Shown here: piece by piece, positions 17,684 to 17,717 of the stretch
Numbering within the stretch: the first letter of the stretch is position 1
Layout: the number at the start of each line of letters is the position of its first letter
Translations under genes and position numbers: made by a program
Assembly (NCBI RefSeq): GCF_044324875.1
Contig: NZ_CP172185.1
Strand: one strand, 5' to 3'
Length of the DNA: 64,000 bases
Origin: Escherichia coli
GTDB lineage: Bacteria > Pseudomonadota > Gammaproteobacteria > Enterobacterales > Enterobacteriaceae
Notes under the pieces: model-generated
Seen by the model: the letters and a program-made list of their open reading frames with translations, nothing else
Database searches by the model: none
Told to the model about the DNA's origin: nothing

Positions 17684-17717
17684 AATTTCAGGTTACAGTT
17701 ACTTGTAACCTGAAATT
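17684..17717 (+). terminator. intra-operon stem-loop between pilin and chaperone genes
   Basis: Perfect 14-bp stem aatttcaggttaca / tgtaacctgaaatt with 6-nt loop, 13 bp after the pilin stop. Confidence 0.5.

Follow-up and report, generated by a model that had tools for sequence, protein, structure and literature searches.

The stretch of DNA analyzed here, hereafter the window, is a 64-kb (64,000-nucleotide) segment of Escherichia coli contig NZ_CP172185.1 (assembly GCF_044324875.1), and the element in question is a hairpin at positions 17683-17718 on the plus strand, between the first two genes of the auf fimbrial operon. This chaperone-usher operon (aufABCDEFG) comprises seven plus-strand genes at 16967-24158 and is flanked by glgP (14037-16484) and glpD, and its open reading frames (ORFs) and their Pfam domains give the order pilin, PapD-type chaperone, usher, two pilins, second chaperone and large pilin-like adhesin. 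In E. coli CFT073, genes in this same order also lie between glgP and glpD and have been described as the aufABCDEFG operon, with aufA encoding the major subunit (PMC5956150). The auf island (16485-24200) has a G+C content of ~38-43% (about 40%), as compared with ~50-57% (about 53%) in the flanking glg and glpD genes, consistent with horizontal acquisition and insertion between glgP and glpD.

The first gene of the operon, an aufA-like gene for the major fimbrial subunit (16967-17671, plus strand, 234 aa; Pfam PF00419 Fimbrial, E = 1.5e-21), is 77% identical to aufA of CFT073 and ends with a TAA stop codon at 17669-17671. It is followed on the same strand by an aufB-like periplasmic chaperone gene (17792-18544; Pfam PapD_N and PapD_C), an aufC-like outer-membrane usher gene (18586-21177; Pfam Usher, PapC_N and PapC_C) and, at 21168-24158, the aufDEFG-like genes for two minor pilins, a second chaperone and a large adhesin-like pilin, which were assigned from ORFs, Pfam and the CFT073 gene order. 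The aufB-like gene is a RefSeq coding sequence in an identical strain, the annotation of which agrees with the ATG start at 17792, and its Shine-Dalgarno sequence is AAGGA at 17781-17785. An earlier note, made from the letters of the window alone, had placed a pilin gene upstream of the hairpin and a chaperone gene downstream of it, and the Pfam matches (fimbrial pilin; PapD-type chaperone, then usher) agree with this description.

Located in the aufA-aufB spacer, the hairpin is encoded on the sense strand of the operon. Its 5' arm AATTTCAGGTTACA (17684-17697) is the exact reverse complement of its 3' arm TGTAACCTGAAATT (17704-17717), with GTTACT between them, and the perfect 14-bp stem-loop claimed in the earlier note is therefore exact, the true element being slightly larger. 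The addition of T17683-A17718 extends the perfect inverted repeat to 15 nt (17683-17697/17704-17718), and in RNA G17698·U17703 forms the closing pair of a UUAC tetraloop (17699-17702), resulting in a 16-bp stem of 15 Watson-Crick pairs and one closing G·U (5' arm, 17683-17698; 3' arm, 17703-17718). The spacing given in the same note could be read directly from the sequence: the 14-bp arms start 13 nt beyond the aufA TAA, counted from its final base, and end 75 nt short of the aufB ATG, which for the 16-bp stem leaves 11 unpaired nucleotides upstream and 73 nt downstream. Only 4 of the 16 pairs are G-C or C-G, and the stem is stable overall and A/U-rich at its base. RNA folding of the region, which had been proposed as a check, returned a stable structure with an energy of -19.9 kcal/mol in a 71-nt context, as compared with -7.3 ± 2.3 kcal/mol for shuffled sequences (z = -5.6; none of 200 shuffles as good), and the 36-nt element folded alone has an energy of -18.5 kcal/mol. 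A further small hairpin, GCUGUA...UACAGC, surrounds the aufA stop codon in the window allele (17659-17678); this structure and an A/U hairpin downstream were considered as candidate elements and dropped, as neither is conserved in the CFT073 allele.

With a loop of 3-10 nt allowed, the auf hairpin is the longest perfect inverted repeat of the window, and the longest such repeat in 40 dinucleotide shuffles of the whole window was 8-11 nt, against the 15 nt observed. The window contains two other perfect close inverted repeats, of 12 nt each: one at 57732-57761 (AAAACGGGAGGC/GCCTCCCGTTTT), which resembles a bidirectional terminator, and one at 28550-28575 (TCAGGTCAGATT/AATCTGACCTGA), immediately 3' of glpD. 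No second copy of the hairpin arm sequence was found within the 64 kb, and among complete E. coli genomes the aufA-aufB spacer occurs once per genome and always on the chromosome, the only "plasmid" matches being 4.9-Mb records that we read as mislabelled chromosomes. A repetitive extragenic palindrome (REP) or bacterial interspersed mosaic element, another dispersed repeat and a mobile-element end were rejected on these grounds, since the hairpin is single-copy in the window, occupies one place per E. coli genome and is absent from true plasmids. Assignment to an Rfam family was likewise rejected: in a search of 16400-18000 at a permissive threshold, no family reached its gathering score, the best matches scoring 13-19 bits where 48-100 bits or more were required, and these sub-threshold matches were to unrelated microRNA or small RNA models.

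The whole auf operon exists in two deep allele families at this one chromosomal site (16764-24187 in the window, 8990-16400 in the CFT073 assembly L001), which are so divergent that the third codon positions of aufA are only 51% identical between them. Among 5,426 complete E. coli genomes, the window-type spacer is present in ~210 and the CFT073 type in ~557 (~768 together). One set of alleles was taken from representative genomes and another from a scan of metagenomes anchored on the end of aufA and on the aufB ribosome-binding block; as the anchors lie in flanking sequence, the hairpin itself was not required for retrieval. Eight distinct spacer alleles were collected in total from E. coli genomes and metagenome contigs. 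Three of the contigs (L091, L093 and L101) carry operons of the window type with ~91-94% identity to the window, and one of them also spans glgP with ~91% identity, which suggests that these operons belong to other Escherichia lineages. The nearest orthologue outside Escherichia was sought by an AufB scan of the contigs of 100,044 species representatives, among which none exceeded 51% chaperone identity. Direct analysis of covariation was thus limited to Escherichia alleles, and 80 related loci were used positionally instead.

The hairpin is kept in every allele inspected, across the ~768 complete genomes and the metagenome contigs. RNAalifold applied to the eight alleles returned the same 16 pairs, with 99.2% of the 128 alignment cells paired; when the 3' partner was slid by 1-3 columns, this value fell to 20-48%. 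Only one cell is unpaired, at the outer end of the stem in a single metagenome allele. Ten of the 16 pairs are invariant, one has undergone a compensatory change (U-A in window-type alleles, C-G in CFT073-type alleles), and the remaining five vary on one side only, with Watson-Crick pairing and G·U replacing each other on the sense strand in every case. Variants within the families follow the same pattern: pairing is retained through G·U after a C-to-U change in strain 22KM0354, and through the U·G wobble that is also found in metagenome alleles after an A-to-G change in isolate 68. The hairpin region differs in 10 CFT073-type genomes, a sample of which gave one substitution (to G·U) and one deletion in the loop. 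About six genomes appear to have lost 1 nt here; in GPEC1185, the one inspected, the deletion falls within the loop. Between window and CFT073 the stem is 84% identical, versus the 51% at aufA third codon positions, and three of the four loop positions differ between the two families. The downstream spacer differs between them by 19 nt in length and is barely alignable, except for a block around the Shine-Dalgarno sequence. This block, TTTCATC(T/A)ACAAGGATGC(A/T)GTATGA at 17772-17797, surrounds the aufB Shine-Dalgarno sequence and start codon and is conserved in all alleles, unlike the remaining spacer; RNAalifold also predicted a 4-bp CAUC/GAUG helix around the aufB Shine-Dalgarno sequence.

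A G·U pair on the sense strand corresponds to A·C on the antisense strand, and the two strands consequently behave differently. Across all variants, the energy of the sense-strand hairpin stays between -17.2 and -19.9 kcal/mol, whereas that of the antisense hairpin drops to between -8.0 and -14.6 kcal/mol in all alleles except the window type. This asymmetry bears on a possible role at the level of double-stranded DNA, in which the element would be bound by a dimeric regulator as a palindromic site or would form a cruciform. The window allele is a perfect DNA palindrome, and the auf island, with its low G+C content, is AT-rich DNA of the type that is bound by nucleoid proteins. However, the changes among alleles break the symmetry of the DNA and keep sense RNA pairing through G·U, changes in one half-site are not mirrored in the other, and stability on the antisense strand is lower by 4-10 kcal/mol; the conserved feature is therefore not the DNA palindrome. 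In addition, the site is internal to the operon, with the aufB start 73 nt downstream of it, and the plus strand of the spacer gave no promoter-like match. We regard a DNA-level function as highly unlikely.

Simulations in which the observed transition fraction was used gave a probability of 0.009 that five random substitutions in the stem would retain all 16 pairs, and of 0.0015 that eight random substitutions in the 36 nt would give a fold as stable as the CFT073 hairpin; for a single random stem substitution, pairing is retained with p = 0.33. The element could also be a neutral relic without function, for example a palindrome that arose by chance or a trace left by an old insertion, and its single-copy state and confinement to Escherichia would suit such an origin. 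Against this, the hairpin is far beyond chance in shuffles of the window, it is not a repeated element, and it has been kept in both deep families despite near-saturated synonymous sites, with only structure-preserving changes seen. We would give this explanation hardly any weight. The substitution pattern instead indicates that the hairpin is maintained by selection as a sense-strand RNA structure, although the power of the comparison is modest, with eight alleles in two deep clades.

The earlier note had further claimed that structures of this kind are found in operons of the pap/fim type, and this generalization was borne out in a class test of 80 related chaperone-usher loci, in which a single stem-loop of -8 kcal/mol or better was counted as a hairpin. 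All 142 pilin-like ORFs upstream of chaperone genes in these loci are homologous to Auf pilins. Whole-spacer z-scores were uninformative in the relatives because G+C-rich shuffles fold equally well, and the energy of the best single stem-loop was used instead. After the first of two tandem pilin genes, a hairpin was present in 36 of 52 loci (median best energy, -9.1 kcal/mol), as compared with 0 of 41 loci after the second pilin gene (0.0 kcal/mol) and 5 of 17 loci after a single pilin gene (-5.3 kcal/mol). The hairpins that follow a first pilin gene, of which GGGCCAGGAAGGCCC and GCCTCAATGGATGAGGC are typical, begin 21-31 nt beyond its stop codon and usually have no T-run; two of the hairpins after a single pilin gene do have T-runs and are canonical terminators. 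In the sampled related operons, it is thus a property of the class that the first (major) pilin gene is directly followed by a hairpin, in most cases one lacking a U-tract.

The relatives include fim-like operons of Citrobacter, Klebsiella, Raoultella, Kluyvera, Enterobacter and other genera, the chaperones of which are 41-51% identical to AufB. As in auf, their hairpin follows the first pilin gene, but the next gene is a second pilin gene in the relatives and the chaperone gene in auf, and the hairpins share no sequence homology. Their stems are short and G+C-rich (5-8 bp, GGGCC...GGCCC or GCCTCA...TGAGGC, -7 to -12 kcal/mol), as compared with 16 bp and -18.5 kcal/mol in auf.

The absence of a U-tract, also claimed in the earlier note, is true for the window allele: the tail after the stem is AUAUUACAUG, with no T-run, and a terminator scan did not flag the hairpin in this allele. 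A canonical intrinsic (Rho-independent) terminator, which the auf element resembles as a stem-loop at a gene end, would have a U run directly after the stem, and the window allele lacks this run; the auf stem is also unusually long and A/U-rich in comparison with such terminators. The CFT073 hairpin, the 3' foot of which lies at about 9954 of L001, also has 16 pairs and carries a weak U-rich tail, AAATTATTTA (given as AAAUUAUUUA when compared with the window tail), with which it passes a loose terminator pattern only. As the U-rich tail is not conserved between alleles, the conserved feature is the stem itself.

The tails bear on partial termination, in which RNA polymerase would stop at the hairpin in some rounds so that fewer transcripts reach aufB-aufG. 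Such an attenuator would sit where a terminator has been described after papA (PMC5927463), the CFT073-type allele with its 16 pairs and U-rich tail fits the loose terminator pattern, and two relatives (L052/L061 and L072) carry canonical hairpins with T-runs at this very position. On the other hand, the window allele is without a U-tract and went unflagged by the terminator scan, the stem and not the tail is conserved between alleles, and the T-run is absent from most of the analogous hairpins of relatives. C-poor sequence does not favor Rho loading at rut (Rho utilization) sites, and the C content of the spacer is 11%. Attenuation as the principal role of the hairpin is therefore unlikely in our view.

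In position and strand, in stability beyond what composition explains and in a structure kept across relatives, the auf hairpin agrees with the intercistronic hairpins of the papA/cfaB/cssB type. The papBA and cfaAB messages are textbook cases of differential decay, and papA mRNA has a nuclease-resistant 3' structure (PMC5927463). The pap operon (P pilus) resembles auf in having a stable stem-loop immediately downstream of the major pilin gene, ahead of the assembly genes. In pap, the pilin mRNA exceeds the remaining operon message in both abundance and lifetime (PMC5927463); the papA structure has been described as a terminator, whereas the auf window allele lacks a U-tract, and the two have no sequence similarity. 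The papBA message also has a protective 5' structure and an RNase E site upstream. Similarly, the cfaB stem-loop of CFA/I and the cssB-cssC hairpin of CS6 are located between the structural subunit and the chaperone/usher genes, in operons of chaperone-usher clades other than that of auf. The CS6 stem is 6-7 bp long and G+C-rich, compared with the 16-bp, A/U-rich stem of auf. The loss of CS6 protein was nearly complete when the cssB-cssC hairpin was destroyed or deleted, and transcript levels in that system departed from the prediction of a simple stabilizer (PMC8923064). Outside fimbrial operons, the malE-malF REP and the puf operon hairpin are 3' stem-loops that block 3'-to-5' exonucleases and set operon stoichiometry (PMC5927463). 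The auf hairpin would share this decay-terminator principle with them; REP elements, however, have hundreds of copies per genome, and the auf hairpin is single-copy. The type of element is thus well known from the papBA, cfaAB and CS6 design and had already been named in the earlier note, and the auf hairpin is an unusually long, A/U-rich form of it. All parts of that note's reading which can be checked in sequence hold.

In fimbriae, hundreds to thousands of pilin subunits are needed per usher and per adhesin, and a hairpin after the pilin gene is a classic route to pilin excess from a single promoter. We propose as the probable function of the auf hairpin that of a cis-acting barrier to 3'-to-5' mRNA decay, possibly acting as a weak attenuator too, which would enrich aufA mRNA. 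For this mechanism we infer polycistronic transcription, a cleavage step, stalling of exonucleases and an effect on stoichiometry. The operon transcript would be cut in the A/U-rich spacer downstream of the hairpin (17719-17791, plus strand), which is predicted to be unpaired and is a candidate endonucleolytic entry region, or transcription would occasionally stop there. Exonucleases such as polynucleotide phosphorylase and ribonuclease (RNase) II would then trim back the exposed end and stall at the 16-bp stem, and the aufA segment would outlive the aufBCDEFG segment, resulting in far more pilin than chaperone or usher. Slight attenuation of transcription may contribute, more plausibly in the CFT073-type allele with its weak U-rich tail.

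Several features of the locus are consistent with a decay barrier. A distance of 11 nt past a stop codon corresponds approximately to the downstream edge of a terminating ribosome, and as the helix starts at about this edge, translation of aufA should not melt the hairpin. The 73-nt downstream spacer, with 75% A+U (75% A+T in the DNA) and 11% C, should in our judgement be well suited to cleavage by RNase E and ill suited to the loading of Rho. In addition, overproduction of TosR induces aufA through aufG together, by 2.6-6.6 log2 units in RNA sequencing of CFT073 (PMC5956150), which fits a single operon transcript.

A number of observations weigh against this reading, some of them bearing on conservation and others on mechanism. 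Three of the ~768 genomes hold uninspected variants in the hairpin region (two with a single mismatch, one with multiple mismatches). Two-sided covariation amounts to one pair only, and because the alleles form two deep clades plus a few tips, few independent events are represented. That all five transitions are wobble-compatible would occur by chance with a probability of ~0.03; among 500 column shuffles, 9 match the observed percentage of paired cells together with the covariation score, and 386 match the number of pairs changed on both sides. With its A/U-rich stem, two to three times the length of the G+C-rich ones in the relatives, the auf hairpin may not work as theirs do. Finally, no auf transcript coverage, 3'-end mapping, half-lives or aufA:aufB ratios were found in the literature searched; this literature, which left out the original description of auf (Buckles et al. 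2004), also yielded no mention of the auf hairpin.

The length of the stem raises the question of whether a duplex of 16-17 bp, two to three times that of the relatives, may be more than a passive block to exonucleases, being a dedicated site for double-strand processing or protein binding (e.g., by RNase III) or a terminator that needs no U-tract. We consider this broader possibility rather doubtful; if true, a processing site or a U-tract-free terminator would physically uncouple aufA from the aufBCDEFG mRNA, possibly in a regulatable manner. One rival reading is a processing site at which RNase III, or another double-strand-specific endonuclease, would split aufA from the downstream mRNA. 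The 16-17 uninterrupted pairs are far beyond what an exonuclease block needs and beyond the 5-8 bp of the relatives, pairing is retained over the full length in nearly all alleles, and the processing of fimbrial operon mRNA is known from papBA (PMC5927463). Yet a cut within the stem would strip the 3' protection from aufA mRNA, the opposite of the expected benefit. Moreover, typical RNase III sites in E. coli span about two helical turns (~20 bp or more), and the auf stem is shorter than these. We judge cleavage within the hairpin to be improbable.

Placed among the known examples, the proposed decay barrier opens no new mechanistic question. Its value is rather that auf provides a clean, naturally replicated case, in which two families near synonymous saturation have kept the pairs through G·U and compensatory changes. 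For studies of Auf expression, or for RNA sequencing of auf, in uropathogenic or avian-pathogenic E. coli, an excess of aufA reads over downstream reads would be expected to arise post-transcriptionally.

Minor observations were made at the downstream end of the operon. In the CFT073 assembly (L001, 15240-16370), the aufG homologue is annotated as a pseudogene with an internal stop, and three hypothetical genes between it and glpD appear to be largely missing from the window, of which only a 174-nt fragment (24324-24497) aligns to the CFT073 region between aufG and glpD. The best terminator-like site within 14-26 kb of the window is a G+C-rich 8-bp hairpin followed by TTTTTTT at 24638-24657 (plus strand), ~480 nt past the aufG stop and bordering an insertion-sequence block. 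This block (24200-28590) separates the end of the auf operon from glpD (28591-30111, minus strand); strain BEC1-S17-ESBL-09 (L002) is without it and is identical to the window over the compared stretch, 16485-17800. The block contains an IS110-family transposase ORF (24681-25532, minus strand), the Pfam match of which begins at profile position 43, indicating that its N-terminus is cut off, and an adjoining IS21-family pair consisting of IstB (25644-26642) and an IstA-like ORF (26416-28062).
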